Of a stretch of 64,000 nucleotides of DNA, positions 4,610 through 54,693 are shown piece after piece. The stretch comes from an uncultured Chloroflexota bacterium (lineage in GTDB: Bacteria; Chloroflexota; Dehalococcoidia; Lucifugimonadales; CAJXCD01). The stretch's first letter is position 1. Each line of letters opens with the position of its first letter. The DNA lies in contig CAJXCD010000001.1 of the NCBI GenBank assembly GCA_913051545.1, positions 236,863 to 300,862 on the forward strand, given 5' to 3'. The notes beneath the pieces were generated by a model that saw only the letters and a program-made list of their open reading frames with translations, did no database searches and had not been told where the DNA came from. Made by a program: the position numbers and the translations under genes.

Positions 4610-7600
4610 TTATTCCCAGTTCTTGGCTGGTGGCAGTGGGTCGTCCACATAGATGTTTTCGATAATTGAAGCAACGATGTTTACGTTATCTTGTGTTTTA
4701 GACACGGTGCCTATAATTTTCAATACTGGTTGAGACAAAACATTTCGATATCGATTGAATACTTTAGGTAATACAATTATGGAAATGTGGCCGTATTCAT
4801 CTTCTAGTGTGAGGAATATTTTGTGGCTGCGAGGGTGTTGTCTCCGTATAACGAGACCTGCAACTGTAACTTTAGAGTGGTTAGGCACTTTAGGGATTTC
4901 GGCACTTGTTAGAATTTTGGCAGACATATTTGGTCTGAGAATTTCCATTAAATGCCCCTGTGGATATAGGTTGGTAGTGTCATATTCACCAGCCATTTTT
5001 TCCCAGTCGCTCATATTGGGCAAGGTGACCCTGTCTTGTTCTATTGAAAGAGGTAACGATAACTGAATAGATGCCGGTCTGTAGATTAACCCTATCTCCC
5101 ATAGTGCAGACCGACGGTTCGGTGTGAATGTATCGAAAGCACCAGCTCGCGCGAGGTTTTTCAGGGCCAGATAATTGAGGTTGAGCCTGTTGACTGTATC
5201 CGTAATGCTCAGGAATGGACCTTCGCTATCTCTGTTTCTCACGATATGACCTGCGTTGGTGTTGCTTATGCCCTTCGTCATAGATAGTCCTAATAAGAAT
5301 GAATTATTGTCCTTTGGGGCACATTCCACCAGGCTCTTGTTGATATCGATGTTTAAGGGGTATATCCCGTGTCGTTTGGCATCTTCTTTCAAAGTTTCTA
5401 GGTTGTAGAACCCCATGGGTTGCTGGTTAAAGATTGCAATAAAAAACTCTAGAGGGTAGTAATGTTTAATCCAGGACATCTGATAAGCAGTTATGCCGAA
5501 GGCGTATGCGTGCGACTCCGGGAACATGTATTGCCCAGAAAATTTATTGAATATTTTCAGAGCTGTGCTTTCCGAGACCCCTCTTTTGATTGCTCCTGTT
5601 TTAAATTGACTCCAATATTTTTTAATAAGAGATTCCCCGTTTTTTCTGCCAAAGGCTCTGCGAAGGTGGTCAGCTTCTCTAGGTTGGAAGCCAGCAACAT
5701 TCATTGCCAATTCATTGACCTGGTCTTGGTACAAGATAACACCGTGGGTGCGTTCTAGTGCGGGTTTTTCCAAAGGGTGGTCATATTCCCATTTGTCGGC
5801 ATTCACATATCTGCTAATGAATTGGCTAACTCCGTTGACATTTCCTACGCCTGGTCTGACACAGGCTACTTCGTATGCCATCTCGCGCAGATTTTTAGGC
5901 TTGAGCCTTGTTACGGTTTGCATCTGTGCAGCGGATTCAATTTGGAATACTCCGATAGTGTCGGCTTTATGAATTGACTTGTAAACTTCTTGGTCATCAA
6001 AATTTATGCGAGATATGTCGATTGATTTACCAGTACGGTTCTCTATGAGTTGTAGAGATTCGTGTAGCTGAGATAGAGTGCCTAATGCCAAGAAGTCTAT
6101 TTTTACGAACCCTGCATCAGCAATACTGTCTTTGTCCCAGTGGCATATGTATCTCTCTCCCTCTGTGCTTGGCTGGACAGGAACCATATTTGTCAGAGGA
6201 GATGAGCTAATAATCATGCCGCCAGGATGCTGGGAGAGATATTTTGGTGCCCCATGAAGATCGGAGGTCAATTTCATGAATATCTGCCAATACGGATGGT
6301 TGATCTTCTCCCGGAAGCTTGGCAATCTAGCCATTTCAGATTCTATGTCTTTAGAATGGCGAGTATCTATTTGCCGAGACAGGTTATGTAGATCTTTGGA
6401 AGGAATTCCTAATATCTTGCCTATATCTTTGATACAGCCCTTCATTTTGTAGGTGGCTATAGAACCTGTGATGACGGCATGATCCCAACCATATTTATCG
6501 TGGATTCTCCGAATCAGTTCCTCTCGTATGTTGCGTGGAAAGTCTAGGTCAATGTCAGGGAGGCTAGACATGTCATTGTTGAGGAATCGGCCTAGAGAAA
6601 GGTTGTAGGCTAAAGGGTCTATATGGGAGAGACCGATTAAGTAAGCTACTAGTGAGGCCACGGAGGAGCCTCTGCCTCTACCAGGAGGCCTTTCTTCCAA
6701 GGGTGTTTCGGAACTACTAATGCCCAGATCAATCATTGCTTGGCGGGCTAGTTGGATTATCTCATAATAAATCAAGAAGAAGCCGGAAAGATTATATAGC
6801 TGTAGAAGGTGAAATTCTTCCTCTAGGCGTGTCAGTACTTGCGCATTTATTGAGCCATATTTACGAACGGCTGCTTGATAGCAGATCTTTTTCAGGTACG
6901 AGAGAGGGGTGTGGTTTTTAGAGACAGGGTAGTTTGGAAGCTCGTACCCAAGATCTTCTTTGAGATTGAATGTGCATTGTTCTGCTATTTTGATGGTATT
7001 TGATAGTGCCTCTGGAAGTTCTGAGAATAGGCTAGCAATTTCTGCTACTGGCTTGAGGTAGAAATTATTGTTGGCCCGCCGTTCTAGATGACTCTCTTCA
7101 AGGGTTAGGTTATGCCTGATTGCAACAAGGGCATCTTGCAGTTGGTGACGTTCAGGTATGTGGTAGTGGACGTTGTTTGTAGCAACACAATTTAGTCCGT
7201 ATTTTTTAGCCAATTTAACAAGAAATTTATTGCGGTATACGTCTCCGTAGATCATGTTTTGCTGTAGTTCAACAAACACATTGTTTGTGCCAAACCATTC
7301 CAAATATTTTGCTATTTCCTTTTCTGCTGCCTTGTCTCTTCGCTCTGTAGCCAGAGCGGGTATTTTTCCTCTAGCACATCCAGTTAAAAGAGTAATGCCC
7401 TCAGTGTGGTTCTTTAGGAAATCAGGGTCTACCTTAGGGTTTGTGGAGTTTTTGTGAAATCGAGAATGAGTGATTAAATTGCAAAGGTTGGAGTACCCTT
7501 TCCGAGTTCTGGATAAAAGGGTTAAATGGGATCCGTCTTCTAGGGTAATCTCGGCGCCTGTTATTGGCTGTATCCCGATGTCGTTTGCCATGCGGGAGAA

Positions 7601-9480: not shown

Positions 9481-10572
9481 TTGAAATCAGCAGTTGTTTA
9501 TGAATTTGGCAAACCTGTTCAGATAAAGGATCTTGTGCAGGATTCTCCAAAGGCAGGAGAAGTCAAAATTAGAATGGGGGCAGCTGGAGTATGTGCTAGT
9601 GATTATCATGTTATGCACGGTAATGCTGTGTTGCCGTTGCCCGTGGCCCTTGGGCATGAGGGAGCCGGAACCGTTATCGAGGTAGGGGAAGGTGTGAGGG
9701 GTCTTAATCCAGGTGATAGATGTATCCTGTCTTTCGTTTCAAATTGTGGCCACTGTCGTACTTGTCGGACAGGCCTACCAAATATTTGCGAGACGAATAT
9801 TGAAACAGGTGTCATGCAATTTGATGGCACCGCTCGTTTACACGACGGAGATTTGGATATAGGTCAAATGGCAAAGATTGGTGTTTTTTCTGAGACTATA
9901 GTGGCTCCACAACAGGCCTGTCACCTTATTCCAGATGAAGTTCCATTCCCTGTGGCGGCGCTCATAGGATGTTGTGTGACAACTGGTGTAGGGGCTGTTA
10001 TTAATAATCCCGCTGCTAAGCCAGGTATAAGCGTGGCTGTATTTGGGTGTGGCGGAGTAGGGTTGAATGTTATTCAAGGTGCTGTATTGATGGGGGCCAG
10101 GCGTATCATCGCAGTAGACATACATAACCATAAGCTGGAATTCGCTTATAAATTTGGTGCAACTGATGTTATCAATTCCAGGGAAACAGATCCGGTAGAG
10201 GTGATCAAATCCCTGACAGGTGATGGCGTTGATATGGCTATTGACAGCTTTGGGTCTACTAAGATAGTGGCTGATGGGGTGAAGTCGCTACGCAGAGGAG
10301 GTACGGCTGTGATGGTTGGCCTAGTGCCGGTAGGTGATACTGCGTCAGTGGATGTAGTTGATATGATTCGTGGACAGAAGACTTTAGTGGGAAGTTATTA
10401 CGGATCTTCTAGTCCGCACGAAACATTCAAAAAGCTTGTGGATTACTACTTGCGTGGACGTATAGACATTGAAGGATTGATTACAAGGACATATAGCTTA
10501 GATCAAATCAATGAGGGATTCAGTGCGATAGAAAATGGCGAGGATGGTCGCGGCGTGATTGTTTTTCCTTAG
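9481..10572 (+). CDS. Zn-dependent alcohol dehydrogenase (class III-like MDR)
   Basis: Catalytic Zn ligands CASD and GHEGAGTV. Structural Zn cluster CGHCRTCRTGLPNIC. Rossmann motif VFGCGGVGL. TTG start with a GGGGG upstream. Confidence 0.85.
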   Translation: MKSAVVYEFGKPVQIKDLVQDSPKAGEVKIRMGAAGVCASDYHVMHGNAVLPLPVALGHEGAGTVIEVGEGVRGLNPGDRCILSFVSNCGHCRTCRTGLPNICETNIETGVMQFDGTARLHDGDLDIGQMAKIGVFSETIVAPQQACHLIPDEVPFPVAALIGCCVTTGVGAVINNPAAKPGISVAVFGCGGVGLNVIQGAVLMGARRIIAVDIHNHKLEFAYKFGATDVINSRETDPVEVIKSLTGDGVDMAIDSFGSTKIVADGVKSLRRGGTAVMVGLVPVGDTASVDVVDMIRGQKTLVGSYYGSSSPHETFKKLVDYYLRGRIDIEGLITRTYSLDQINEGFSAIENGEDGRGVIVFP

Positions 10573-10667: not shown

Positions 10668-11753
10668 TTGAGGGCAGCTGTAATGTATGAACCGAATAGG
10701 CCCTTAGAAATTCAAGATCTACACCAGGAATCCCCACGTCAAGGTGAGGTTAGGATTTCAATGGAAGCCGCAGGCATCTGCGCAAGTGACCATCATGCAA
10801 CAACTGGACGGATGAAAATGCCACTACCTGTGGTACTAGGGCATGAAGGTTCAGGCACTGTGGTAGAAGTAGGTCCGGGTGTATCGAGAGTAAAGCTTGG
10901 TGATAGATGTATATTATCATTTATGTCACTTTGTGGTTATTGTAGGCAATGTCGATCTGGCACAGGGTTATGCGAAACTCATGCGCTAACTCGTAACATG
11001 CTGTTTGACGGGACAGTGAGGTTACACAGGGAGGATATTGAGATACAGCAAATGGGTAAGATAGGAGTATTTGCAGAATCTGTAGTTGTTCCACAGGAGG
11101 CGTGTTATCCGTTTAAGGATGAATTGTCACCTCAGGCCGCAGCACTAATTGGATGTTGTGTAACCACTGGTGCCGGGGCAGTTATTAACAGTTCTGTGGC
11201 AAGTGCGGGTATGACTGTAGCAGTCTTTGGTTGCGGAGGTGTTGGGCTCAGCGTTATACAGGGTGCGAGGTTGATGAACGCGAGTCGTATAATAGCAGTT
11301 GACGTATATTCACATAAGTTAGAGTTTAGTTATAAATTTGGTGCCACAGATGTGGTTAATTCTAGGGAAACGGACCCAGTCGAAGCTATAGTTGAGCTTA
11401 CAGGGGGTGGTGTGGATATGGCCTTCGACAGTTTTGGAGGATCAATTACAACGGCAGCTGCATTCAACTCTGTACGTAAGGGAGGCACTGCTGTCGTAAT
11501 TGGATTATCCAACCCGGGAGAGTCACCTCCGATAGATTTATATCAAATGGCAGTTAGTCAAAAGTCGTTGGTTGGAAGCTTTTACGGATCCGCGAATCCT
11601 CATGAGACATTCAGTAAACTGGCCAGATTTTGTTCCAGAGACGTTCTTGACGTAGATAGCTTAATTACTCGCACGTATTCACTCGATGAGGTAAATGATG
11701 GACTCGAGGCATTAGAGCGAGGGGAGGATGGTCGTGGTGTCATACTGTTCTAA
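10668..11753 (+). CDS. Zn-dependent alcohol dehydrogenase, tandem paralog
   Basis: Same motif set (CASD, GHEGSGTV, CGYCRQCRSG, VFGCGGVGL). Collinear with the upstream copy. TTG start with an AAGGAGG upstream. Confidence 0.85.
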   Translation: MRAAVMYEPNRPLEIQDLHQESPRQGEVRISMEAAGICASDHHATTGRMKMPLPVVLGHEGSGTVVEVGPGVSRVKLGDRCILSFMSLCGYCRQCRSGTGLCETHALTRNMLFDGTVRLHREDIEIQQMGKIGVFAESVVVPQEACYPFKDELSPQAAALIGCCVTTGAGAVINSSVASAGMTVAVFGCGGVGLSVIQGARLMNASRIIAVDVYSHKLEFSYKFGATDVVNSRETDPVEAIVELTGGGVDMAFDSFGGSITTAAAFNSVRKGGTAVVIGLSNPGESPPIDLYQMAVSQKSLVGSFYGSANPHETFSKLARFCSRDVLDVDSLITRTYSLDEVNDGLEALERGEDGRGVILF

Positions 11754-31000: not shown

Positions 31001-31258
31001 TCAGTCAGTGACGCCATTTTCTTTGAGGTAATCTAGGGCACTTTGAACGGTTATGATGTTTTCCGCATCCTCATCAGATATTTCTATCGGGTCGTCATCA
31101 GTGCTAAACTCTTCCTCAAAAGCCATTATCAATTCCACAAGGTCTAAAGAATCAGCATTTAAATCTTCTGTAAACGATGATTCTGGTAACACATCACCTT
31201 GGTCTACGCTAAGTTTTTCTGCCACAACTTCCTGTACTCTTTCTAACACGGTTGCCAT
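31001..31258 (-). CDS. acpP: Acyl carrier protein
   Basis: 85 aa, phosphopantetheine attachment motif [14 protein letters not shown]. Confidence 0.9.
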
Positions 31259-34626: not shown

Positions 34627-35064
34627 ATGTTGTCTTTTGCGTTCGACTATTTTCTGTTCATATTTTTTGCATCTTTCGGGATTGTTCAATTTGCTGCATC
34701 GAAATCGGGTCTCGCATCGATATTGATTTTTCGATCTCCAAAATTATCCCGAATTATTGGTATTACATTAATAGTGATTTCAGCAGGGGTATTTTTTCTT
34801 ACAGATAACCGTAATATTAATGATTATGAGGGAGGATTGGATGCTAATCAACAAGCTTATTTATTTGTCCTCGCTTCATTTGCATCATTAGTTGCCACAA
34901 TGACGATTGGATCGATACGACACAGGCGTGTGGAGTCAGATTTTACTATTGATGAAGGTTTAGGTTCTTTAGTCAAGACGGGATATTTTAAGGCTTTGCT
35001 TGGAAGTATGAGGTACTGGCATCGCGAATGGAAAACACAGATCAAAGACTACTTATTTGGCTGA
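34627..35064 (+). CDS. Hypothetical membrane protein
   Basis: 145-aa ORF with 3-4 hydrophobic segments and no recognisable motif. Overlaps the next ORF by 37 nt, so one of the two boundaries is uncertain. Confidence 0.4.
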   Translation: MLSFAFDYFLFIFFASFGIVQFAASKSGLASILIFRSPKLSRIIGITLIVISAGVFFLTDNRNINDYEGGLDANQQAYLFVLASFASLVATMTIGSIRHRRVESDFTIDEGLGSLVKTGYFKALLGSMRYWHREWKTQIKDYLFG

Positions 35065-35679: not shown

Positions 35680-38600
35680 ATGTATTTTAGCTTTCGGCTG
35701 TTTGGTATAACGCGTGGGTATCGCTCAAGGATAATTTTAGCTGCATTTGCAGGATTATTTGCAATAATTTGCGGCATTGGCAGACTCGCACTTTCTGGTG
35801 TGGTGATCGCTAGAGTTTTTAATGGTGAGTCATTTTCGACATTGATTCCACAGATGATAGTGATTTCATTACTAGTGATTTTAAGGGCCTTGAGTCAGTA
35901 TGTGCGCGATATGCTCAGTCACAGAGTGGCAAGTGAAATTAAAATAGGTTTACGACAACGTTTGTGTTCCCATTTATTGGGGTTAGGCCCAGGGTATTTT
36001 GATCGACGTAGAATAGGTGATGTCCTTGTATTTCTGGTAGATGGAGTCGAGAATTTAGAAGCATTTTTTGGTCAGTATCTCCCACAATTTTTTGTAGCTG
36101 CAGTAGCGCCGATAATAATATTCGTATTTATGGTTACGCTTGATTTACAAATAGGCGTAATTATTTTGTTTTCTGCTTTAGCCACATTCTTTTTACCTTC
36201 TTGGCTCCATCGGATGCATAGGCATTTGAGCTTGGCTCGCAGGGATACATTTGGAGCATTGGGCGCAGAATTCCTTGATAGCATTCAGGGCATTACTACT
36301 CTAAAGGGGTTTGGTCAGAGTCGACGAAGGGGTGAGATGTTATCGGAAAAGGCGAGAGAGGTGTATCGGAGCACTATGAAGGTTTTCCTCGTTGACGGTA
36401 TTTCTAGTGCCGTTACCATAGTAGGGGTTTCTGGGGGAGCTTCTCTGGCTTTAGCATGGGGTGCGATACGAGTCGGTAACGGGGATTTAGAATTACAGAG
36501 CCTATTGATCATTCTTATGTTAGGTGCTGAAGTATTTAGGCCGTTGAGAGAATTAACCCAATTGTATCATCAAGGGATGACAGCAATGGCTTCAGCAGAA
36601 GGGGTTTTTGGGGTATTCGATAGCAGGATAAAAGTTGTTGATGTGCAAACAGAATCTGGAAATAAAGAATTACCTGTTCCAGGAAATCTGAGTGATATAG
36701 TATTTGAAAACGTGACTCTTAAGTATGATCAAGGGAAGCGTTCAGCAATTGAAAATTTGTCGTTTACTCTCCGGGCAGGTGAAACATTAGGTCTGGTAGG
36801 CGCTAGCGGTGCAGGTAAGTCGACAGTTGTGTGGCTTCTTTTTCGTTTTCTAGATCCTCAAAAAGGGAGAATATATTTGGGCGGTAGGGATCTACCCTCT
36901 ATCTCTTTAGATGTCTTGAGATCTCAAATAGCGGTCGTTACTCAAGACACGTATCTTTTTAACGGCACAATTGCTGAAAATTTACGACTCGGCAGAATTG
37001 ATGCTACTGAGGAAGAAATAGTGGAAGCTGCACGTTCTGCGAATGCACATGAGTTCATAAGTGATTTGAAAGATGGATATGAAACCAATGTAGGTGAGCG
37101 TGGCGTTAAGTTATCTGGTGGACAGAGGCAAAGAATAGCAATCGCAAGAGCACTACTTAAATCTGCGCCAATATTAGTGCTTGACGAAGCCTTGTCAAAC
37201 GTCGATGCAGATAATGAGGCGGATATACAGTCAGCGATTGATAGATTAACAAAAGGTAAGACGACTCTAATTATAGCTCACCGTTTGTCAAGTGTCGTGA
37301 AAGCTGATCGAATTTTGGTATTGGACAAGGGTGCTTTGGTTGAATCTGGTACACACAGAGAATTAGTGGGCTCCAGAGGTATGTATTCGCGATTGATGTC
37401 CGCACAACAATTTGCTCAGGATGAAAATTTTCTGAATGTTGACGTGATTGGGAAGAGAAAAAATTATATAGAAGATGATAATTTAGCTAAACAGTTAGAC
37501 ATATCTGAACAAGAAATTCAGACTACGGAAATATCGATATGGGAGGTATGTAAAAGGCTTTTACGCTTGGTTAAACAATGGTCTTGGGAACTTATTTTGA
37601 GTTTATTGTCAGGACTCACTCACCACTCCACAAATATTGGTCTTGGAGCTATGGGGGCAATATTAGTAGGACGGATTTATACCGGAGATACATTTGGTGA
37701 GTTATTAGTATATTTAGGCGTATTCGTAATAATTTGTGCGTTGGCTCGTTGGGTTGAAGCTTGGGCGTCTCATGATTTGGCGTATCGACTTTTAGCTGAA
37801 ATGCGTATAGATATGTACAATGGGCTAGAACCGCTTGCCCCTGCCTACACGAACGATCGTACCTCAGGAGATTTAGCAAGTGTAGCGGGGGGCGATGTTG
37901 AAAGCATAGAAAATTTTTATGCTCATGTCATAACTCCGGCTATAGTTGCATTGGTGTTACCTTTAGCTGTAATCATCACTCTATTATTTGTAGCATGGCC
38001 TCTAGTGCTAGCCCTATTCCCATTTCTTTCTGTAGCTGCCATAAGCCCATTTTTTGCACAACAAAAATCTGAACGTTTAGGTCTAGAAATGAGGCAGAAG
38101 TTGGGAGAATTGAACGCTTTAGTAGTGGATGGCATTCAGGGGATGAGAGAAATATCTGCCTTTGGTGCAGGTGATCTATGGCTAAATCAAACCATAAAAA
38201 AGGGGGAAGGATTTTCGAAATATCGACTAGATTTTCTTAAGCAGCAAGCTTTTCAAGGTGGAATTATTGAATCGGTAACAGCCTTAGGTGGATTATCAGT
38301 ACTGGCCACTGGAGCTTTCCTTGCATCTGAAGAAGAAATCAGTCGATCTGTATTACCGCTTACTACGCTGCTGGCACTATCTTCCTTTGCTCCGGTTACA
38401 GAGCTTGCTAGTACATTGAGACAATTAATGGAGACAATTGCTTCTGCCAGAAGGATTTTCCAAATACAAGATGAGCCGGTTGTAATTATGGATGGGCCTG
38501 GGGTTCGGTTGCCAAATCATGTTTCTCGTGTACCATCTTTGCTGTTTGAAAATGTCAGTTTTTCTTATTCGAAAAAGAACACATCTGTGCTTCGAGAAAT

Positions 38601-39270
38601 AAATTTTTCCGTAAAATCTGGTCAGACAGTGGCTTTAGTGGGACATTCTGGAGCAGGCAAAACGACGATAGCAAACTTATTAATGAGGTTTTGGGATCCC
38701 GACGAAGGCTCGATATTCCTGGGGGGTTACAAATTGAAGCAATTCACCCTTGAAGAATTAAGACAGAATATAGCGATGGTGTCTCAAGACACATATCTTT
38801 TCAACGCCTCAATTATAGATAATCTCAGAATGGCTAAACATGATGCTACGGAGGCTGAAATTCAAAATGCCACAACTATTGCTAATGCACATGAATTTAT
38901 CGAATCATTCCCGGATAGATATGATACTGAGATTGGAGAGCGAGGCATCCGTCTGTCGGGTGGCCAACGCCAGAGGTTATCAATAGCGAGGGCAGTATTA
39001 AAAGATGCTCCCGTACTAATTCTTGATGAGGCAACCTCACACCTTGATATGATTAGCGAGCAACAGGTGAGAGAAGCTTTCCAGAATGTCACAGCAGGAC
39101 GTACTACTTTGGTTATTGCACACAGATTATCTACTGTTCGCGATTCTGACCACATAGTGGTACTGAATCACGGCCGAATAGATGAGGAAGGTACTCATGA
39201 ATTCCTGTTAAAGTCAAACGGAGCGTATTCTAGATTAGTATCTACACAGATATTAGGTACTTCAGGCTAG
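35680..39270 (+). CDS. Fused double ABC exporter (TMD-NBD-TMD-NBD), CydD/CydC-like
   Basis: 1196 aa. Two Walker A sites (GASGAGKST, GHSGAGKTT), two LSGGQRQR signatures and two Walker B sites (ILVLDEA, VLILDEA), each preceded by a six-helix-type TMD. Confidence 0.8.
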   Translation: MYFSFRLFGITRGYRSRIILAAFAGLFAIICGIGRLALSGVVIARVFNGESFSTLIPQMIVISLLVILRALSQYVRDMLSHRVASEIKIGLRQRLCSHLLGLGPGYFDRRRIGDVLVFLVDGVENLEAFFGQYLPQFFVAAVAPIIIFVFMVTLDLQIGVIILFSALATFFLPSWLHRMHRHLSLARRDTFGALGAEFLDSIQGITTLKGFGQSRRRGEMLSEKAREVYRSTMKVFLVDGISSAVTIVGVSGGASLALAWGAIRVGNGDLELQSLLIILMLGAEVFRPLRELTQLYHQGMTAMASAEGVFGVFDSRIKVVDVQTESGNKELPVPGNLSDIVFENVTLKYDQGKRSAIENLSFTLRAGETLGLVGASGAGKSTVVWLLFRFLDPQKGRIYLGGRDLPSISLDVLRSQIAVVTQDTYLFNGTIAENLRLGRIDATEEEIVEAARSANAHEFISDLKDGYETNVGERGVKLSGGQRQRIAIARALLKSAPILVLDEALSNVDADNEADIQSAIDRLTKGKTTLIIAHRLSSVVKADRILVLDKGALVESGTHRELVGSRGMYSRLMSAQQFAQDENFLNVDVIGKRKNYIEDDNLAKQLDISEQEIQTTEISIWEVCKRLLRLVKQWSWELILSLLSGLTHHSTNIGLGAMGAILVGRIYTGDTFGELLVYLGVFVIICALARWVEAWASHDLAYRLLAEMRIDMYNGLEPLAPAYTNDRTSGDLASVAGGDVESIENFYAHVITPAIVALVLPLAVIITLLFVAWPLVLALFPFLSVAAISPFFAQQKSERLGLEMRQKLGELNALVVDGIQGMREISAFGAGDLWLNQTIKKGEGFSKYRLDFLKQQAFQGGIIESVTALGGLSVLATGAFLASEEEISRSVLPLTTLLALSSFAPVTELASTLRQLMETIASARRIFQIQDEPVVIMDGPGVRLPNHVSRVPSLLFENVSFSYSKKNTSVLREINFSVKSGQTVALVGHSGAGKTTIANLLMRFWDPDEGSIFLGGYKLKQFTLEELRQNIAMVSQDTYLFNASIIDNLRMAKHDATEAEIQNATTIANAHEFIESFPDRYDTEIGERGIRLSGGQRQRLSIARAVLKDAPVLILDEATSHLDMISEQQVREAFQNVTAGRTTLVIAHRLSTVRDSDHIVVLNHGRIDEEGTHEFLLKSNGAYSRLVSTQILGTSG

Positions 39271-39283
39271 ACATGTAGGATTT

Positions 39284-40336
39284 TTATAGTCCGTTTGGTA
39301 AAGGTACGTTGAATCGTTCTGAAGCCTCACGCAGATTTTGAACAGTTCCTTGTGGAAGGGGGATGCCATTTGCAGATCGGTCTTCGTACACTCTGTTCTC
39401 GATTTCTCCAGGAACAAAAATTTCTTTGGACTCATCAGTTTTAGGTAGAGATTTAATTCCCTGTACTAGGCGATCCACATTTTCCCTGTAAGAATCAGTA
39501 TCAGTGAAAGTACTAATGTTGATTGCTGCTACAAAACTGTTTTGCATACCGCGTACAATTTTAGATTTGACAGGCTCCGGTGGCTGTAGTAGAGGATTAC
39601 CTACCATAAGGCTGGATAAACACTCAAACATTAAGGCAAGGCCGGATCCTTTTGGCCCTCCGAAAGGTAGCAGAGATTTAAATTGTTTTGGGTCTGTGGT
39701 TGGTTTACCGTCGCTATCTAGAGCCCAAGTGTTTGGTATAGATACTCCCTTGTCTTTAGCAAATTCTAGTTTCCCACCCGCAGCTACACTTGTGGCCATA
39801 TCGAGTGAGATAGGTTTGTGCTGTAGTCCTGGAACAGCTATGGCTATTGGGCTATTGTGTACTCCAGGGACTCTAGCTCCATGTGGGGCCATGTTTGCCG
39901 GACTACACACGGATGCTAGGCCTGCCATATTTTGTTCTGCGGCCATTAATGAATAATATGCCATTGCCCCTTGGTGGGTTGTATTGCGAATTAGCCCCCA
40001 GCCAATACCAGCAGTTTTTGCTTTTTCAATAGCTTTATTCATTGCCATAGTTGTTACCACTGGGCCTAGAGCTAAATCTGCGTCTATTAGAAATGTTGCT
40101 TGTGTTTCGTTAACTATTTGTATATTGGGTTTAGGTTTCATTATTCCCTTGTCAATCCATCCAAGGTATAAGGGAATCCGCAGCACACCATGAGAGTCCA
40201 CTCCCCTAAGGTTCGCCCAGATGAGCACATCGGACTCAGTTTCAGCATCTCTACGAGGTACTCCCGCTTTTGAAAACACTTCTACAGAGAAGTTTTTCAG
40301 TTCGTCACTAGGTACCCTAGTTAAATTATCTTCCAT
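39284..40336 (-). CDS. Ldh_2 family (malate/L-lactate dehydrogenase type 2) oxidoreductase
   Basis: 350 aa. GVDSHGVLRIPLY and HQGAMAYY-type motifs. AAGGGAG RBS upstream of ATG 40336. Confidence 0.75.
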   Translation of the reverse strand: MEDNLTRVPSDELKNFSVEVFSKAGVPRRDAETESDVLIWANLRGVDSHGVLRIPLYLGWIDKGIMKPKPNIQIVNETQATFLIDADLALGPVVTTMAMNKAIEKAKTAGIGWGLIRNTTHQGAMAYYSLMAAEQNMAGLASVCSPANMAPHGARVPGVHNSPIAIAVPGLQHKPISLDMATSVAAGGKLEFAKDKGVSIPNTWALDSDGKPTTDPKQFKSLLPFGGPKGSGLALMFECLSSLMVGNPLLQPPEPVKSKIVRGMQNSFVAAINISTFTDTDSYRENVDRLVQGIKSLPKTDESKEIFVPGEIENRVYEDRSANGIPLPQGTVQNLREASERFNVPLPNGL

Positions 40337-40394: not shown

Positions 40395-41465
40395 CTAGGT
40401 TTTCAGCATTTCGGACAATTCTTTTTCTAGCCCGTGTTCTTGTACCAGGGCCATTAGTTGATTCCAAGTTGCCTGTTCAACGGGTATACCGTTAGATAAG
40501 CGCTCTTCACGGGTCTTTTTTTCAATTTCTCCTGGATACAGAACCCCCTGAGAGCCCTCCATTGTAGAGGAAGATTTTACCCATTCAACAGCTTCTTGTA
40601 CCGCATCGCTAACTCCTGGAATGGGTGACACGGAAGCTACATCAATTACAATAATGGAAGAGCTCCCACTCCATTGAAACTGTGAGGCTTCTGTAGCTCC
40701 TAATCCACCTAAAAGCCCTCCAAATAATGCAACCATGAACCCTAGGGCATAACCTTTGTGTCCTCCGCTCATCCCACCCATTGGAAGTATTGCTCCACCG
40801 TCATAATAGTCGTTTGGGTTATCACTTGGCATGCCATTTTTATCGATAATCCATTTATCAGGTAAAGTTCTTCCCCCTGCACGATATACTCTTAGTTTCC
40901 CTTCAGCAGCCATCGATGTCGCGAAGTCAAGTAATACTCGCCCGCCCTTTGGTAGAGGGAATGACATGGATATTGGATTAGTGCCATACCGTCTTTCACT
41001 ACCACCGAATGGTGTTACATTTTGTGCGAATGGGCCGCCCATAAACCCCGTGAACATAATTGCAGCCATTCCACTTTGTGCCACTGTTTCAGGGTAAGCT
41101 CCAATACGTCCTGTATGTCCCATTCGACCCATAGAAACGAATGAAATCCCTGATTTTTTAGCTTTGCTGATAGCAAGTTGTGTAGCGAAAGTAGCTACAA
41201 CTTGGCCGAATCCAGAATTGCCATTTACGAGAGCAGACCCACCAGCTTCTTGGACTATTTCTGGCTGTGCACGCGGGTTCAATGTGCCTTCATCAATTTC
41301 TTTAATGTATTGCATCGTGCGAATAATACCGTGAGAATCATGTCCGGCAAGATTTGCGTCAGTAAGATGTTGTGCTAGGGTGGTCGCATTTTCTTTAGGT
41401 GCTCCCATTTTTGAAAAAAGACCTAGGGCGATTTTATAAATCAAATTATTATTTACTATAGGCAT
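40395..41465 (-). CDS. Ldh_2 family oxidoreductase, divergent tandem paralog
   Basis: GHDSHGIIRTMQY and GHTGRIGAY motifs. ATG 41465 has a GGAGG 7 nt upstream; the track start is 41480. Confidence 0.75.
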   Translation of the reverse strand: MPIVNNNLIYKIALGLFSKMGAPKENATTLAQHLTDANLAGHDSHGIIRTMQYIKEIDEGTLNPRAQPEIVQEAGGSALVNGNSGFGQVVATFATQLAISKAKKSGISFVSMGRMGHTGRIGAYPETVAQSGMAAIMFTGFMGGPFAQNVTPFGGSERRYGTNPISMSFPLPKGGRVLLDFATSMAAEGKLRVYRAGGRTLPDKWIIDKNGMPSDNPNDYYDGGAILPMGGMSGGHKGYALGFMVALFGGLLGGLGATEASQFQWSGSSSIIVIDVASVSPIPGVSDAVQEAVEWVKSSSTMEGSQGVLYPGEIEKKTREERLSNGIPVEQATWNQLMALVQEHGLEKELSEMLKT

Positions 41466-41579
41466 AGGAAACCTCCACATTTAAATATGTCGCTATCAGT
41501 ATTTCCCGTTCAGCCTGGGATTGTAACATTAGATTTGCAGTTTTGTGTGAATGGAGTAAGTGATTTGCAAAGACTTGAT

Positions 41580-43091
41580 TTATGAGGGGTCATATATTTC
41601 TGTTTCTGGATAGAATGAACTCCAAGCCATCCAAAAAGATAAGTGGGTTGCTATGCGAGGAAGAATTTTTCGAGGATTTAACTGATGTATAAGCCTCGTC
41701 TCGGTTATACTCCAGATCTCGCCATTTTGATCTACTAAAGTGCTTATAGGGTCATCGACTCGCAGGCTAGGAAGTGTAAAATCATACTCTTTACGGTCAT
41801 ATACCCTAATTTCCTCTGGTTGTCCGGAGGTTACTATTACTAAGTCAGTGTTTCCAACAGTATCATTTAAAACCGAGTTTTTGGTTAGCATCTTTACTGG
41901 GTATGCTTTTGTAAAACCACTCATTTTCAAGCCTAATATCAGATCTTTAGCATTGAATGCGGGATCTATATTCCAAATAGGAAATAACGGCGTCTTAAGA
42001 TTGCGATAATCGTAGTAGGAACTTAAAGGGTCAGATTCAGGACGATATAGTTCAGGTGGGTATATACCAGTATTTATTGAAAGAACAGTAGTTTCAGGAT
42101 GAGAATGGAGCCATCTCTCCCAGGTAGTTACTAGTACAGGGAAAAATTTGAGCTTGATTCCCTTATTAGATAATGGTCCAATTACGGGCTCTCCTGTCAA
42201 TTGATTCCAAAGACTTTCCGTTTCCCTGTCGTACATGAGTTTATTGCTGCGATAAAGCAATCCAGATGTGCCAAATGTAGTTGGTGTGTCTAGGATCTTG
42301 GAGGAATACACGATTCCTGCATTGCAAAGTGTTCAGTACGTTAATGTAATATGCTCGCCTCCTAGAATATCATTGGCCATTTCATGGGGATTTAGTATGC
42401 GCAAAGGATAAGCTCTATGTTCCCCATTTATCGATACTCCAAAAACGTGGTCGTCTCCAGAGAGATACTTGGCATCGTTAGCGTTTACAACTGGACTATA
42501 TTGGAGGTCAGGTATGCCATCCACCAGCACGCCTCCCCATACTATTTCTGTGAGGTCTATTTTAGAAGTTTCATTCGCGGATTCAAGTAGGTTTTCGAAC
42601 TTGGGGTCGATACTTCTCATTAATGTTATTTTCCACTCCAGATATCTTGCAGGGGGATTGAAGTCGGATCGATTATTACCTATCCAAACCATCCATGTGT
42701 TCCACTCATCAAAGCTCCTGGGGATTGTTTGTTCTGTAAGGGAATTTAAAACAGAGTTTGCAGTGTAAAGGAAGCGTTCATTTGGGAAGAAACGCATTAT
42801 TTCAATTATTACTGGGACTTGGGATTTATCTTGATGCAATTTGGCATTACTTAATGCATTGACGGCTACCTCTAAAGAGTGCCCTGATCCGGAGTAAATT
42901 GAGAACATGTTTGTGTCAGAATCATATTTTTTTACAGCGAGTGCTTCGGTGTGGTTGATATTTCCGATGGGGCTAGAAGTGTTTTCACTTTCTGAACCAC
43001 AAGACAGCGAGATCCCAACGAGTAGCATAAGATATATGGTGGAGGATAAAGATGATTTAGTCACAATCCTTTTGCAGGTAGCGGTAAGCAT
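41580..43091 (-). CDS. DUF3179-family protein with one in-frame TGA (42333..42335): candidate selenoprotein, alternatively a nonsense pseudogene
   Basis: ORFs 42333..43091 and 41580..42311 share one frame and together form a single DUF3179 domain. They are separated only by a TGA and 7 sense codons. Read-through gives ...ITLTY-U-TLCNAGIVY... Confidence 0.55.
42302..42318 (-). promoter_or_regulatory. Candidate bacterial SECIS-like hairpin
   Basis: AGGAAU-CGUGU-AUUCCU, a perfect 6-bp stem starting 14 nt after the in-frame UGA. Confidence 0.35.
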
Positions 43092-43167
43092 TCTTAATTA
43101 TGGATATGAAATCAGGCGTTTTAGAAATTTTACCAACTGTTTTAAGAAATAAAAATGTTCACTATCA

Positions 43168-44346
43168 TCATTTCTTAAACTCTTGGTTTAGACGCCGGAT
43201 AATTATCTCCACTTCCTCTCCATTTAGATTTATTGGATCGATAGCTAATTCATTAGGATTGCCTATAAAATGTAAGAATATAGGAGGTTTCCCAGTTGCC
43301 ATTCGTTCTAATATAGCGTCCCTGCTAGGACCTTCGTATTCGCTTCCAAATGTGAGTACGGTTGTGGGGATAAGATAGTTATACTGGTCGTGTTCGATTG
43401 TTACTTTCAAACCAGCGGCAGGGGTTAATGACTCGGATATATGTTGACTCATTTCGAGGTAGCATTTCGTTTCAGCATTCTCATCTTCTTGGGTGAAAAT
43501 CTGTAAAGCTGCTATTAATCCGACGATTTCTTCCTTGGCAACTTTCATAGGACGACCTAAAAACTGATTAGGACTGGAATTTGCTGATGCGGCTTCGATT
43601 AATTCAGACTTTCCACATAAAATCCCTGTTCCTTGAGGTCCTCTTACCCCTTTGCCTCCGCTGTAAATTACCATGTCGGCGCCTAGTTGCGAATAACGAC
43701 TTAGGTTGCCTCGTGGCGGGAGCATGGAGGCCGCATCTACTATGACAGGTACGCCATGGCGATGGGCGATTTCACAAACCTGCTCTAAAGGGAGAGCAAG
43801 TCGTGAGTAAAAAGGAGCTTGTAGATAAGCTACTGCGGCGGTCTTATATGTGAAGGCTGCCTCTAGTTGCCAAGGATGACAGCGTCGCCCATCACCAATT
43901 TCTACAAGTTTTGCCCCAGCTATGCGATAACACTGGTCATATGGGAATCTTTGGCTTTTTTGAATTATGATTTCGTTATTAAGGCCTTGAACATCCGGAA
44001 GTCGGCTCATTTTTGATGAATCATTACCGGCTATACAGGCGGCGGCCTGAAGGGTTAACCCGGCAGAGGCACCTCCTGTTACCAATCCAGCTTCTGCACC
44101 CGTAAGATCCGCCAGTATTTTCCCTGCTTGTTTGTTTAGATCGGCTAGATTTACCATTACACCGGATGCTTTATTCATGACGTCCATTATCTCTGGTCGT
44201 AGCTTGGAGCCACCGAATGCGGTAGTGTTTCCAGAAGCTGTAATCGCAGGTTCAACTCCGAGAGAGCGGTATATATCTACAGGATCTTCTATTCTAGTAA
44301 GTTGTGGTAACACTTCGTTCGGTCCCTTTTTATAATCTACGGTCAT
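43168..44346 (-). CDS. SelA-family (SelA/DgaE-like) PLP-dependent enzyme
   Basis: 392 aa. GVEPAITASGNTTAFGGS, GAEAGLVTGGASAGL, and the PLP-lysine region YSGGKGVRGPQGTGILCGKSELI, which resembles the SelA FSGDKLLGGPQ motif. Lacks the N-terminal extension of bona fide bacterial SelA. Confidence 0.65.
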   Translation of the reverse strand: MTVDYKKGPNEVLPQLTRIEDPVDIYRSLGVEPAITASGNTTAFGGSKLRPEIMDVMNKASGVMVNLADLNKQAGKILADLTGAEAGLVTGGASAGLTLQAAACIAGNDSSKMSRLPDVQGLNNEIIIQKSQRFPYDQCYRIAGAKLVEIGDGRRCHPWQLEAAFTYKTAAVAYLQAPFYSRLALPLEQVCEIAHRHGVPVIVDAASMLPPRGNLSRYSQLGADMVIYSGGKGVRGPQGTGILCGKSELIEAASANSSPNQFLGRPMKVAKEEIVGLIAALQIFTQEDENAETKCYLEMSQHISESLTPAAGLKVTIEHDQYNYLIPTTVLTFGSEYEGPSRDAILERMATGKPPIFLHFIGNPNELAIDPINLNGEEVEIIIRRLNQEFKK

Positions 44347-54102: not shown

Positions 54103-54693
54103 ATGGATATTGTAAAAATGATACAAGAGATGGATACGGTGTGTATGTCTGCGACTAAAGTTCCAGGTTTGAGAGGTAAGGCTATGGTTGATGTGGAGCG
54201 CCTCGCTTCATTGGCTAAGCTAATGTTAGACTCTCTGCCAGCAGATTTACAGGAAGCTCAGGAAATTCTTAAACAGAAAGAGAGTATCCTTAATCAGACA
54301 CAATTAGAGGTGAATAGGATTAAGGATATTGCTGAAAAGGAAGTAGTATCTTTGAGAGCAGCTGCTGAACAGAAACAGAGAGATCTTGTAGATGATTCAG
54401 AAATCATGAGAGTAGCTGAGGCTAAAGCAGAAGAAGTCAATCAGCAATCAATTAGTGAAGGTAAAAAGATTGTAGAAGAAGCTCAGAAACGCTCTTATAG
54501 GATAGTTGACGAAGCTGAGATGGCTTCTTCAGTTAGGCGTGATGGTGCTGATCAGTATGCTCGTGAAACCTTGTTTGATTTGGAAGAGAGGTTGGCTGGT
54601 CTTCTAGGTCAAGTTAGGAAAGGTATAGATTCTTTAGGCATTGAGGCTGGAACTACAGTCCAAAACGGTAACAGTGCATCAGTGACTTCCTAG
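54103..54693 (+). CDS. Conserved hypothetical coiled-coil protein
   Basis: 196 aa, heptad-rich and Glu/Lys/Gln-rich, no TM segments. Resembles uncharacterised coiled-coil proteins often mis-annotated as ATPase subunits. Confidence 0.45.
   Translation: MDIVKMIQEMDTVCMSATKVPGLRGKAMVDVERLASLAKLMLDSLPADLQEAQEILKQKESILNQTQLEVNRIKDIAEKEVVSLRAAAEQKQRDLVDDSEIMRVAEAKAEEVNQQSISEGKKIVEEAQKRSYRIVDEAEMASSVRRDGADQYARETLFDLEERLAGLLGQVRKGIDSLGIEAGTTVQNGNSASVTS

Follow-up and report, generated by a model that had tools for sequence, protein, structure and literature searches.

Gene structure and predicted protein

The DNA analysed here is a 64-kb stretch, referred to as the window. It comes from a marine Dehalococcoidia bacterium, uncultured and related to SAR202, that Tara Oceans sampled; among named organisms, SAR202 cluster bacteria have the IleRS closest to that of the window. 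On the minus strand, two open reading frames, 42333..43091 (252 amino acids) and 41580..42311 (243 amino acids), lie in a common frame on translation, separated by one TGA (42335..42333) and the seven sense codons T-L-C-N-A-G-I. Read-through of 41580..43091 gives 503 sense codons followed by TAA (41582..41580), and the peptide across the TGA reads ...HITLTY-U-TLCNAGIVYSSK. Apart from the TGA, the window copy carries no disruption. For the Pfam search of the read-through protein, U was modelled as C, and DUF3179 (PF11376) matched residues 191-497 in one stretch across the TGA, covering positions 2-292 of the 292 in the profile (248.6 bits, E = 1.2e-73), above the gathering threshold of 27 bits. 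The initial annotation had proposed one gene of about 503 codons and an alignment to the DUF3179 model as a check; the common frame and the single Pfam stretch, which spans the TGA and covers the domain end to end, bear this out, and 41580..43091 is a single intact gene. TGA also proved to be a true stop elsewhere in the window, as had been stated, since it closes 13 of 52 ordinary genes; UGA is therefore not recoded genome-wide.

The features of the locus are as follows, all on the minus strand:

41580..43091, minus: complete gene of a predicted DUF3179 selenoprotein, 503 sense codons including one Sec-UGA (translation, Pfam, public records)
42999..43091, minus: predicted lipoprotein signal peptide with lipobox I-S-L-S-C, Cys31 at codon 43001..42999 (PROSITE-type pattern)
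42537..42923, minus: N-terminal helical domain, about residues 57-185, outside any Pfam family and conserved in SAR202-type homologues (AF2 model of the homologue P0007)
41601..42521, minus: DUF3179 (PF11376) domain, residues 191-497, beta-rich (Pfam and secondary structure of the model)
42333..42335, minus: predicted Sec codon UGA, residue 253 (column comparison in related loci)
42324..42335, minus: U-T-L-C motif, residues 253-256 (conservation and model of the Cys homologue)
42302..42318, minus: putative SECIS core hairpin, stem AGGAAU/AUUCCU of 6 bp, loop CGUGU of 5 nt (folding and comparative data)
42299..42321, minus: possible hairpin extension by two outer pairs (U-A, G-C) over a C/C mismatch, weak and not conserved (MFE structure)

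The 1512-nt gene including its TGA is identical in JGI 3300020477, ENA ERZ909159, Logan ERR594339 and NCBI GCA_001179585.1, which speaks against both a recent nonsense mutation and an assembly error. At least two of the records, ENA and Logan, stem from one run, ERR594339, so that the reads are not all independent. In the JGI record, the gene lies on contig Ga0211585_10000005 of 576,585 bp. In public assembly records, gene callers split the gene into ORFs of 231 and 218/243 amino acids and begin the N-terminal half 21 codons later than the 252-amino-acid ORF. The four public records thus carry two truncated 'DUF3179' ORFs where the correct model would be one selenoprotein of 503 residues.

The lipobox was recognised by a regular expression (positive N-region, hydrophobic stretch, then [LIVMFWSTAG]2-[LIVMFYSTAGCQ]-[AGS]-C, of PROSITE PS51257 type), which also matched 32 of 40 homologues; the family consensus around it is ...L....ACGS..GPP. 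The structure model was made for the Cys homologue P0007 rather than for the window protein. In it, residues 68-185 form helices with pLDDT > 90, and a strand at 256-263 ends in the motif, with C263 and C266 at the strand end and in the following turn, before a Gly.

Conservation of the TGA column and of the downstream hairpin

According to the initial annotation, the TGA falls at the first Cys of a CxxC motif, and orthologs with TGA or Cys in this column were to be looked for. Among 160 related genomic and metagenomic loci, only these two states were found, TGA in 101 and Cys (TGC/TGT) in 59. The position was therefore as named, although the C-P-L-C given there for the family was not: all 59 Cys homologues read C-T-L-C. 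The TGA loci comprise 99 with U-T-L-C and two with U-T-L-S. Of 80 species-representative genomes, 66 have TGA in the same column and 13 have Cys; no copy from such genomes exceeds 53% identity to the window copy. The T, L and C after the TGA are each present in 67/67 Sec forms and are encoded by four, four and two different codons, respectively; since they are kept as amino acids with free synonymous variation, translation appears to continue past the TGA. Judged by the strict Sec/Cys alternation, the functional centre of the DUF3179 family would be residue 253.

A relative with 87% protein identity to the window copy (L081) retains the TGA and an identical hairpin. Between the two, dN/dS is 0.087 upstream of the TGA (73 codons) and 0.174 downstream of it (249 codons, dS = 0.42), so that both halves of the gene are under purifying selection.

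The hairpin AGGAAU-CGUGU-AUUCCU (42318..42302) begins 14 nt past the TGA, and its loop 20 nt past it; the GTG at which the ORF track starts the lower ORF (42311..42309) lies inside this loop, 3 nt after AGGA. These coordinates, the spacing and the placement of the GTG agree with the initial annotation, whose proposal of a SECIS-like element is backed by the comparative data given below and not by the folding energy, which is unremarkable. Folding of the 55 nt from the UGA, a check proposed there, gave an MFE of -5.3 kcal/mol, not above shuffled sequences (z = +0.60; 150 of 200 shuffles folded equally well or better). Other TGA-form copies reach -8.5 to -20.7 kcal/mol, which makes the window copy the weakest of the set. 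With an energy at chance level, the significance of the hairpin comes entirely from comparison.

At least five of the six pairs can form in 97 of 101 Sec forms and in one of 59 Cys forms, and the loop CGUGU is found in 94 of the 101 Sec forms. In the Sec forms, codons +6 to +10 are frozen as GGR, ATC (67/67), GTG (67/67), TAT (66/67) and TCC (66/67), while a flanking conserved Tyr is encoded by TAC in 35 and by TAT in 32. Cys forms have GGC ATC GCN TAC AGC at the same codons, which are unable to pair, so no hairpin forms there. RNAalifold returned the same hairpin as consensus. Its closing pair covaries (UA 21, CG 19, GC 2, AU 1, UG 1), and in one locus (L125) the stem core has changed on both arms in a compensatory way, to GGCAU..AUGCC; pairing of the outer columns, 19-39 and 20-38, is limited to a minority of sequences. 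With synonymous sites frozen in TGA forms only and a covarying closing pair, the hairpin behaves as a bacterial SECIS element. Four TGA loci have a quite different long stem, without such a GTG context.

The 15-nt core GGAAUCGUGUAUUCC is nearly invariant across many species, whereas bacterial SECIS elements are as a rule said to vary in sequence. The published bSECIS constraints are a loop of 3-9 nt, an upper stem of 4-16 bp, a UGA-to-loop distance of 16-37 nt and an MFE <= -7.5 kcal/mol (PMC13188914, Fig. 2); moreover, one or both of the first two loop positions should be G, most often with G or U as the next nucleotide (PMC13188914). Like the elements modelled by bSECISearch, the window hairpin lies in the coding region directly 3′ of the UGA; its loop (5 nt), upper stem (6 bp) and UGA-to-loop distance (20 nt) are all in the allowed ranges, CGUGU has G at position 2 and then U, and the structure is backed by conservation and covariation specific to UGA genes. 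It differs in showing no evident bulged nucleotide and in its energy, which misses the published limit (-5.3 vs <= -7.5 kcal/mol, where the segment length of the published tool may differ). Rfam searches at the gathering threshold (whole window) and at E <= 10 (42150..42450) returned no SECIS family; the sole weak match in the latter segment, RF01074 at 12.6 bits, was regarded as noise.

Genomic surroundings

Neither selA, selB, selD nor a tRNA-Sec gene was found in the 64-kb window and 10 kb beyond either end (~84 kb). With ARAGORN, the window gave no tRNA, and the flanks of the 160 related loci gave no tRNA-Sec. Scans for TGA-interrupted ORFs and for UxxC/CxxU motifs gave no credible second selenoprotein gene in the window or in the 20 kb of extensions; a candidate TGA at 31003..31001 is the normal stop of an ACP gene. 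The upstream gene 43168..44346, considered as 'SelA-like', was rejected as SelA (TIGR00474, 46.7 bits at a cut-off of 267.9 bits). It scores highest with TIGR01437, the DgaE family related to SelA, where its 225.4 bits again lie below the cut-off (385.3).

Clustering of gene neighbourhoods over 161 loci yielded no conserved neighbour of DUF3179, the best real cluster being present in 16 loci. On this basis, neither the CydDC-like exporter nearby nor the DgaE-like gene is linked with DUF3179. Of the ten bacteria richest in selenoproteins, two are Dehalococcoidia MAGs (PMC13326102), and we infer a capacity for Sec insertion in the window genome as well. About two thirds of the sampled SAR202-type DUF3179 genes would use Sec, which strengthens reports of selenoprotein-rich marine Dehalococcoidia (PMC13326102).

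Proposed decoding of the UGA and possible function

The window gene very probably encodes a DUF3179-family selenoprotein, with the in-frame TGA decoded as selenocysteine by means of a SECIS-type hairpin. By analogy with the established bacterial mechanism, the mRNA immediately 3′ of the UGA (42335..42333) would be folded as GGAAU-CGUGU-AUUCC when the ribosome arrives at that codon; SelB-GTP carrying Sec-tRNA(Sec) would bind the apical part of this stem-loop and deliver Sec at the UGA in competition with release factor 2. The predicted product, if exported and lipidated, would be a lipoprotein of ~500 residues, held at the outer face of the membrane through Cys31 and composed of the helical N-domain and the beta-rich DUF3179 domain with U253-T-L-C256.

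Read-through of the UGA without Sec, by near-cognate insertion of Trp or Cys or in a lineage that no longer has Sec machinery and tolerates low-level read-through, is an unlikely reading. It would suit a SECIS that in the window copy is the weakest in the family and a Sec machinery that is itself predicted for this genome. Strict alternation of Sec and Cys, however, is what Sec sites typically show, unlike sites of Trp read-through, and the identity of the TGA-specific hairpin in the window and L081 lineages points to continuing selection for a SelB-type signal. Moreover, TGA is an efficient stop for the 13 window genes that end in it, and related Dehalococcoidia are very rich in selenoproteins (PMC13326102).

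A split gene is less probable still. Translation would then stop at the TGA and re-initiate at the invariant GTG (42311..42309) with GGA as Shine-Dalgarno sequence, giving two assembling polypeptides, and the frozen nucleotides would be a re-initiation signal and not a SECIS element. The GTG is indeed present in 67/67 Sec forms, always preceded by GGA or GGG, and gene callers start the second ORF there in one assembly. Yet the seven codons from TGA to GTG would be untranslated, although their T, L and C are kept in 67/67 and align with the CxxC of the Cys forms. An RNA helix better fits the 3′ arm UAUUCC, which is equally frozen, the covarying closing pair and the compensatory change in L125. 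A spacing of 3 nt between Shine-Dalgarno sequence and start is too short for canonical initiation, and the four TGA loci with a different long stem do not have the GTG context at all.

The initial annotation had named a recent nonsense mutation as the alternative, that is, a decaying pseudogene with a coincidental hairpin. The unexceptional hairpin energy and the failure to see Sec machinery in 84 kb are in line with it, but it is effectively excluded by the dN/dS values against L081 and the identical public records: at dS ~0.4-0.5, a relative still has both TGA and hairpin, and its frame stays open downstream (dN/dS = 0.17), the same TGA occurs in 101 of 160 related loci from many species, and the window copy is free of further disruption. 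A sequencing or assembly error of a true TGC/TGT codon, one base away from TGA, has a negligible chance given the identical gene in four public records (of which at least ENA and Logan share run ERR594339) and the TGA in the divergent L081 and 99 further loci.

Selenocysteine decoding thus being the preferred reading, the headline of the initial annotation, a candidate new selenoprotein, has to be corrected in one respect. DUF3179 (PF11376) with the motif UxxC/T is a known prokaryotic selenoprotein family (PMC9312934, Zhang et al. 2022) and also appears as such in a 2026 AEM review (PMC13188914); both credit it to Zhang & Gladyshev 2007 (PMC1976440), and published examples are MBW1804167.1 and MDJ0986319.1. 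Since the family is already catalogued, the present result amounts to a correct re-annotation rather than a discovery, and it opens no new class of biology: family, motif and mechanism are in the literature. Compared by family, Pfam accession and motif type rather than residue by residue, the window protein shares with the published DUF3179 selenoproteins the Pfam domain, the U-x-x-C type of motif (U-T-L-S in relatives), one Sec per protein, the existence of Cys homologues and a stem-loop just downstream of the UGA. It differs in its origin from a deep, low-GC (42.8%) SAR202-related lineage and in an extra helical N-domain (~190 residues) with lipobox. The Cys-containing homologues (C-T-L-C) have the same architecture, 37-49% identity over 85-99% of the length and all other invariant residues in common with the Sec forms, differing in TGC/TGT for TGA and in downstream codons without hairpin. 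Literature searches for SAR202 with selenocysteine gave nothing relevant, and those on DUF3179 proteins found no experimental Sec incorporation (75Se labelling, Sec peptide by mass spectrometry). With its natural Sec/Cys pair and a defined residue 253, this apparently exported, uncharacterised family offers experimenters a test target.

In the proposed product, the selenol/thiol pair would be the functional centre. Thioredoxin-fold UxxC/CxxC oxidoreductases (Trx-like, DsbA-like, Prx-like) share the U-x-x-C spacing and, for the DsbA type, the extracytoplasmic location. They have no sequence or fold similarity to the DUF3179 protein, for which neither a PDB relative by sequence or Foldseek, nor an NCBIfam model, nor a Trx-type Pfam match was found. 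In the Trx fold, CxxC sits at the N-terminus of a helix, whereas the AF2 model of the Cys homologue places the DUF3179 motif at a strand end and turn. An identity as Trx-fold thiol oxidoreductase was therefore rejected, and in this model the arrangement is closer to a metal-binding 'knuckle' than to the active site of a Trx protein. The pair might cycle through a selenenylsulfide, thiol/selenol redox chemistry being something we infer for DUF3179, or might bind metal or chalcogen by a C-x-x-C-G knuckle at the beta-turn, with invariant His/Asp. The His and Asp residues considered together with Sec253 and Cys256 are His236, Asp241, Asp288 and His331.

Taken together, it is a rather doubtful suggestion that GGAAUCGUGUAUUCC represents a distinct minimal SECIS class of SAR202/Dehalococcoidia and that DUF3179 is an exported lipoprotein, not a Trx-like redox protein, binding metal or chalcogen outside the cell through invariant His/Asp and a Sec-x-x-Cys-Gly knuckle located at a beta-turn. 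If such a class existed, its low-GC members, the window copy included, would fall short of the energy threshold that standard SECIS finders apply, and the selenoproteomes of abundant deep-ocean bacteria would consequently be under-called. The N-terminal helical domain, for which no Pfam match was obtained, has the conserved residues W130, W133, W136 and K154.

Reading frame across the TGA and its conservation

On the minus strand, the ORFs 42333..43091 and 41580..42311 share one frame (translation of 41400..43300), and only one TGA (42335..42333) plus the seven sense codons for T-L-C-N-A-G-I lie between them. If the TGA is read through, the frame comprises 503 sense codons followed by TAA. With U modelled as C, the Pfam search matched this protein to DUF3179 (PF11376) in one stretch (residues 191-497; profile positions 2-292 of 292; 248.6 bits), and either half alone represents an incomplete domain. 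Thereby, translation and the nearly full-length profile match confirmed the initial annotation, which had joined both ORFs into one gene across the TGA. It had also taken TGA as a real stop elsewhere in the window, and indeed 13 of the 52 ordinary window genes end on it, so UGA is not generally recoded. Minus-strand 41580..43091 is a real, functional-looking selenoprotein gene mis-split by public annotation. Four public records (L164-L167; JGI, Logan, ENA and NCBI) annotate two DUF3179 ORFs, one of 231 aa and one of 218, 243 or truncated 91 aa, with the N-terminal half beginning at Met22 and thus cutting into the signal peptide.

Full-length Cys homologues (37-49% identity) read ...LAY-C-T-L-C-G... 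in the motif region. With each GTDB species represented by one genome, scanning provided 80 DUF3179 loci, all from Dehalococcoidia or Chloroflexota MAGs, and the column codon was readable in 79 of them (TGA 66, TGC/TGT 13). A metagenome scan added 80 loci, and tblastn-based mapping was run on all 160. TGA was found in 101, of which 99 read U-T-L-C and 2 U-T-L-S; the other 59 have Cys and all read C-T-L-C. A residue other than Sec or Cys occurred in 0 of the 160 loci. Strict Sec/Cys alternation at one column is what classically identifies a selenocysteine codon. The TGA therefore stands at a conserved Cys, as had been proposed, and both forms exist in related genomes.

Among the homologues, the full-length protein P0102 (NCBI/ENA, 532 aa) reads ...LAY-D-V-Q-T-G... 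at the motif and has lost both Cys, which suggests a paralogue lacking a redox or metal centre. Also, contig CAXXWW010000014.1 carries two TGA-form copies (L003 and L036) in opposite orientation, ~185 kb apart and with identical match statistics; either the gene is truly duplicated there or the assembly contains an artefactual inverted repeat.

In 67 of 67 TGA forms, T, L and C follow the TGA, written with 4, 4 and 2 different codons, respectively, so this segment is under selection at the amino-acid level. The related locus L081 (Ga0187827_10260563; 87% protein and 87.7% DNA identity to the window gene) retains the TGA, has an identical hairpin and differs synonymously in its second Cys codon (TGC to TGT). 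Between the two genes, dN/dS was 0.087 upstream of the TGA (73 codons) and 0.174 downstream (249 codons, dS = 0.42), pointing to purifying selection on both halves. The window gene is found 100% identical, TGA included, in JGI 3300020477 contig Ga0211585_10000005 (576 kb), ENA ERZ909159, Logan ERR594339 and NCBI GCA_001179585.1, although the reads behind these four records overlap in part, at least ENA and Logan deriving from run ERR594339. An assembly error, a recent nonsense mutation or pseudogene decay as origin of the TGA is excluded for practical purposes by L081, the low dN/dS on both sides and the four identical records.

The hairpin downstream of the TGA

The hairpin and its properties, set against bacterial SECIS constraints, are as follows.

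42318..42302, minus strand: hairpin AGGAAU-CGUGU-AUUCCU, starting 14 nt after the TGA, with the loop 20 nt after it

Bacterial SECIS constraints (PMC13188914, Fig. 2) and values of the window hairpin
Apical loop: allowed 3-9 nt; window 5 nt
Upper stem: allowed 4-16 bp; window 6 bp
Loop G: within positions 1-2, usually then G/U; window G at position 2, then U
UGA-to-loop spacing: allowed 16-37 nt; window 20 nt
MFE: allowed <= −7.5 kcal/mol; window −5.3 kcal/mol

By energy alone, the window hairpin is ordinary (−5.3 kcal/mol, z = +0.60; in 150 of 200 shuffles, folding was as good or better). It is the weakest copy in the set, other TGA-form copies reaching −8.5 to −20.7 kcal/mol.

Codons +6 to +10 are virtually fixed among TGA forms (GGR; ATC 67/67; GTG 67/67; TAT 66/67; TCC 66/67), whereas their conserved neighbours vary freely (Tyr −1: TAC 35, TAT 32; Leu −3: six codons). 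Cys forms use GGC ATC GCN TAC AGC for the same or similar residues, which makes pairing impossible. At least five of the six stem pairs were present in 97 of 101 TGA forms versus 1 of 59 Cys forms, and the loop CGUGU in 94 of the 101. For 48 distinct sequences, RNAalifold returned exactly this 6-bp hairpin as consensus, with a covarying closing pair (UA 21, CG 19, GC 2, AU 1 in the window, UG 1, broken 4) and a covariation score that none of the 500 shuffles or the slid controls reached. One locus (L125) shows a compensatory change inside the stem core (GGCAU...AUGCC). From these comparisons, the hairpin is a predicted SECIS-type element. The initial proposal of a SECIS is thus upheld by position, loop and comparative data, but not by folding energy, which is no better than that of shuffles.

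The GTG taken as start of the lower ORF sits within the hairpin loop, and an alternative is a genuinely split gene that re-initiates there, with the invariant GGA...GTG as the signal. This reading was rejected because the codons from TGA to GTG are conserved at the amino-acid level, the 3′ arm is equally frozen, the helix covaries and compensates, and only 3 nt separate the SD-like element from the start.

Four TGA forms on metagenome contigs (L115, L118, L136 and L138) are without the 15-nt hairpin and have a much longer, stable, GC-rich stem (−19 to −28.5 kcal/mol), two of them carrying U-T-L-S in place of U-T-L-C; the family thus has at least two SECIS designs. In another TGA form (L064; CBDDEJ010000008.1, ~6500..6560), the loop is exactly inverted (GGAAU-ACACG-AUUCC vs GGAAU-CGUGU-AUUCC), changing G-I-V-Y-S to G-I-H-D-S in frame and removing the G at loop positions 1-2, either by natural stem-mediated inversion or as an assembly artefact.

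The predicted protein and its family

The N-terminus contains a lipobox ending at Cys31. The pattern is found in 32 of 40 homologues, while most of the other eight begin inside the signal region or after it and look N-terminally truncated; the family consensus there is ...ACGS..GPP. Invariant residues include His236, Asn240, Asp241, Asp288 and His331. An AlphaFold2 model of the Cys homologue P0007 (pLDDT 86.7, pTM 0.83) has a disordered linker and two domains, the N-terminal one helical and the DUF3179 one beta-rich. In the latter, both motif Cys lie at a strand end and the next turn, followed by Gly. Neither sequence, profile nor Foldseek searches found a relative of solved structure; there was no NCBIfam model for the protein, and in 161 loci no neighbouring gene was conserved. 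We regard the product as a predicted extracytoplasmic lipoprotein with the Sec253/Cys256 pair as its functional centre. This pair may be a redox couple cycling through a selenenylsulfide, or it may form a knuckle that binds a metal or chalcogen; the modelled strand-turn context differs from that of the Trx fold and tips the balance slightly towards a knuckle.

The initial annotation had called the gene a candidate new selenoprotein. However, Zhang et al. 2022 (PMC9312934) already catalogue DUF3179 (pfam11376; motif 'UxxC/T'; example MBW1804167.1) as a prokaryotic selenoprotein family, and a 2026 AEM review has the same entry (example MDJ0986319.1; PMC13188914), both crediting Zhang & Gladyshev 2007 on Olavius symbionts (PMC1976440). 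The selenoprotein status is therefore not new, and the gene is a new, divergent member of this known family. Somewhat beyond the catalogue entry go the high frequency of the Sec form in SAR202-type genomes, the almost invariant 15-nt SECIS core with sub-threshold energy in this low-GC member, and the apparent lipoprotein nature with a predicted extra N-domain.

Genomic setting and selenocysteine machinery

The window covers a chromosomal stretch of housekeeping character (DnaE, RuvB, methylmalonyl-CoA mutase, FtsK, ilv/leu, NusB, ACP, LysRS, IleRS, SSB, S6) with a GC content of 42.8%. One relative of its IleRS is 94% identical and the rest at most 69%, the only named ones being 'SAR202 cluster bacterium' (63-64%), and the organism is present in Tara Oceans assemblies. 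No selA, selB, selD or tRNA-Sec was found in the 64-kb window and 10 kb beyond either end, and scans for TGA candidates found no further genes. We infer Sec capacity of the genome from the signal conserved specifically in TGA forms and from published work in which Dehalococcoidia MAGs are rich in selenoproteins, two of them with 49 and 46 such genes (PMC13326102).

The gene just upstream, 43168..44346 (−), was considered as SelA and scored 46.7 bits for it (cut-off 267.9), with a weak Pfam SelA match (45 bits) and 225 bits for NCBIfam TIGR01437, below its cut-off. By these scores, SelA is ruled out and the predicted product is a SelA-related, ammonia-lyase-like PLP enzyme of the DgaE family; a SelA-like gene beside a selenoprotein gene is an easy trap. 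It was not a conserved DUF3179 neighbour in other loci. A 1196-aa fused double ABC exporter (35680..39270, +), above the curated cut-offs for CydD, CydC (thiol-reductant exporter) and MsbA, is encoded ~2.3 kb away from the gene for the exported U-x-x-C lipoprotein; this linkage was not conserved in other loci. Directly downstream of the DUF3179 gene lie two tandem, paralogous Ldh_2-family dehydrogenases of the sulfolactate/ureidoglycolate/malate type (39284..40336 and 40395..41480, −), and a tandem pair of paralogous zinc-type alcohol dehydrogenases is located at 9481..10572 and 10668..11753 (+). The ORFs 34627..35064 (+, 145 aa) and 54103..54693 (+, 196 aa) had no Pfam match at E <= 1e-5; independent assemblies also carry the latter as a called gene.
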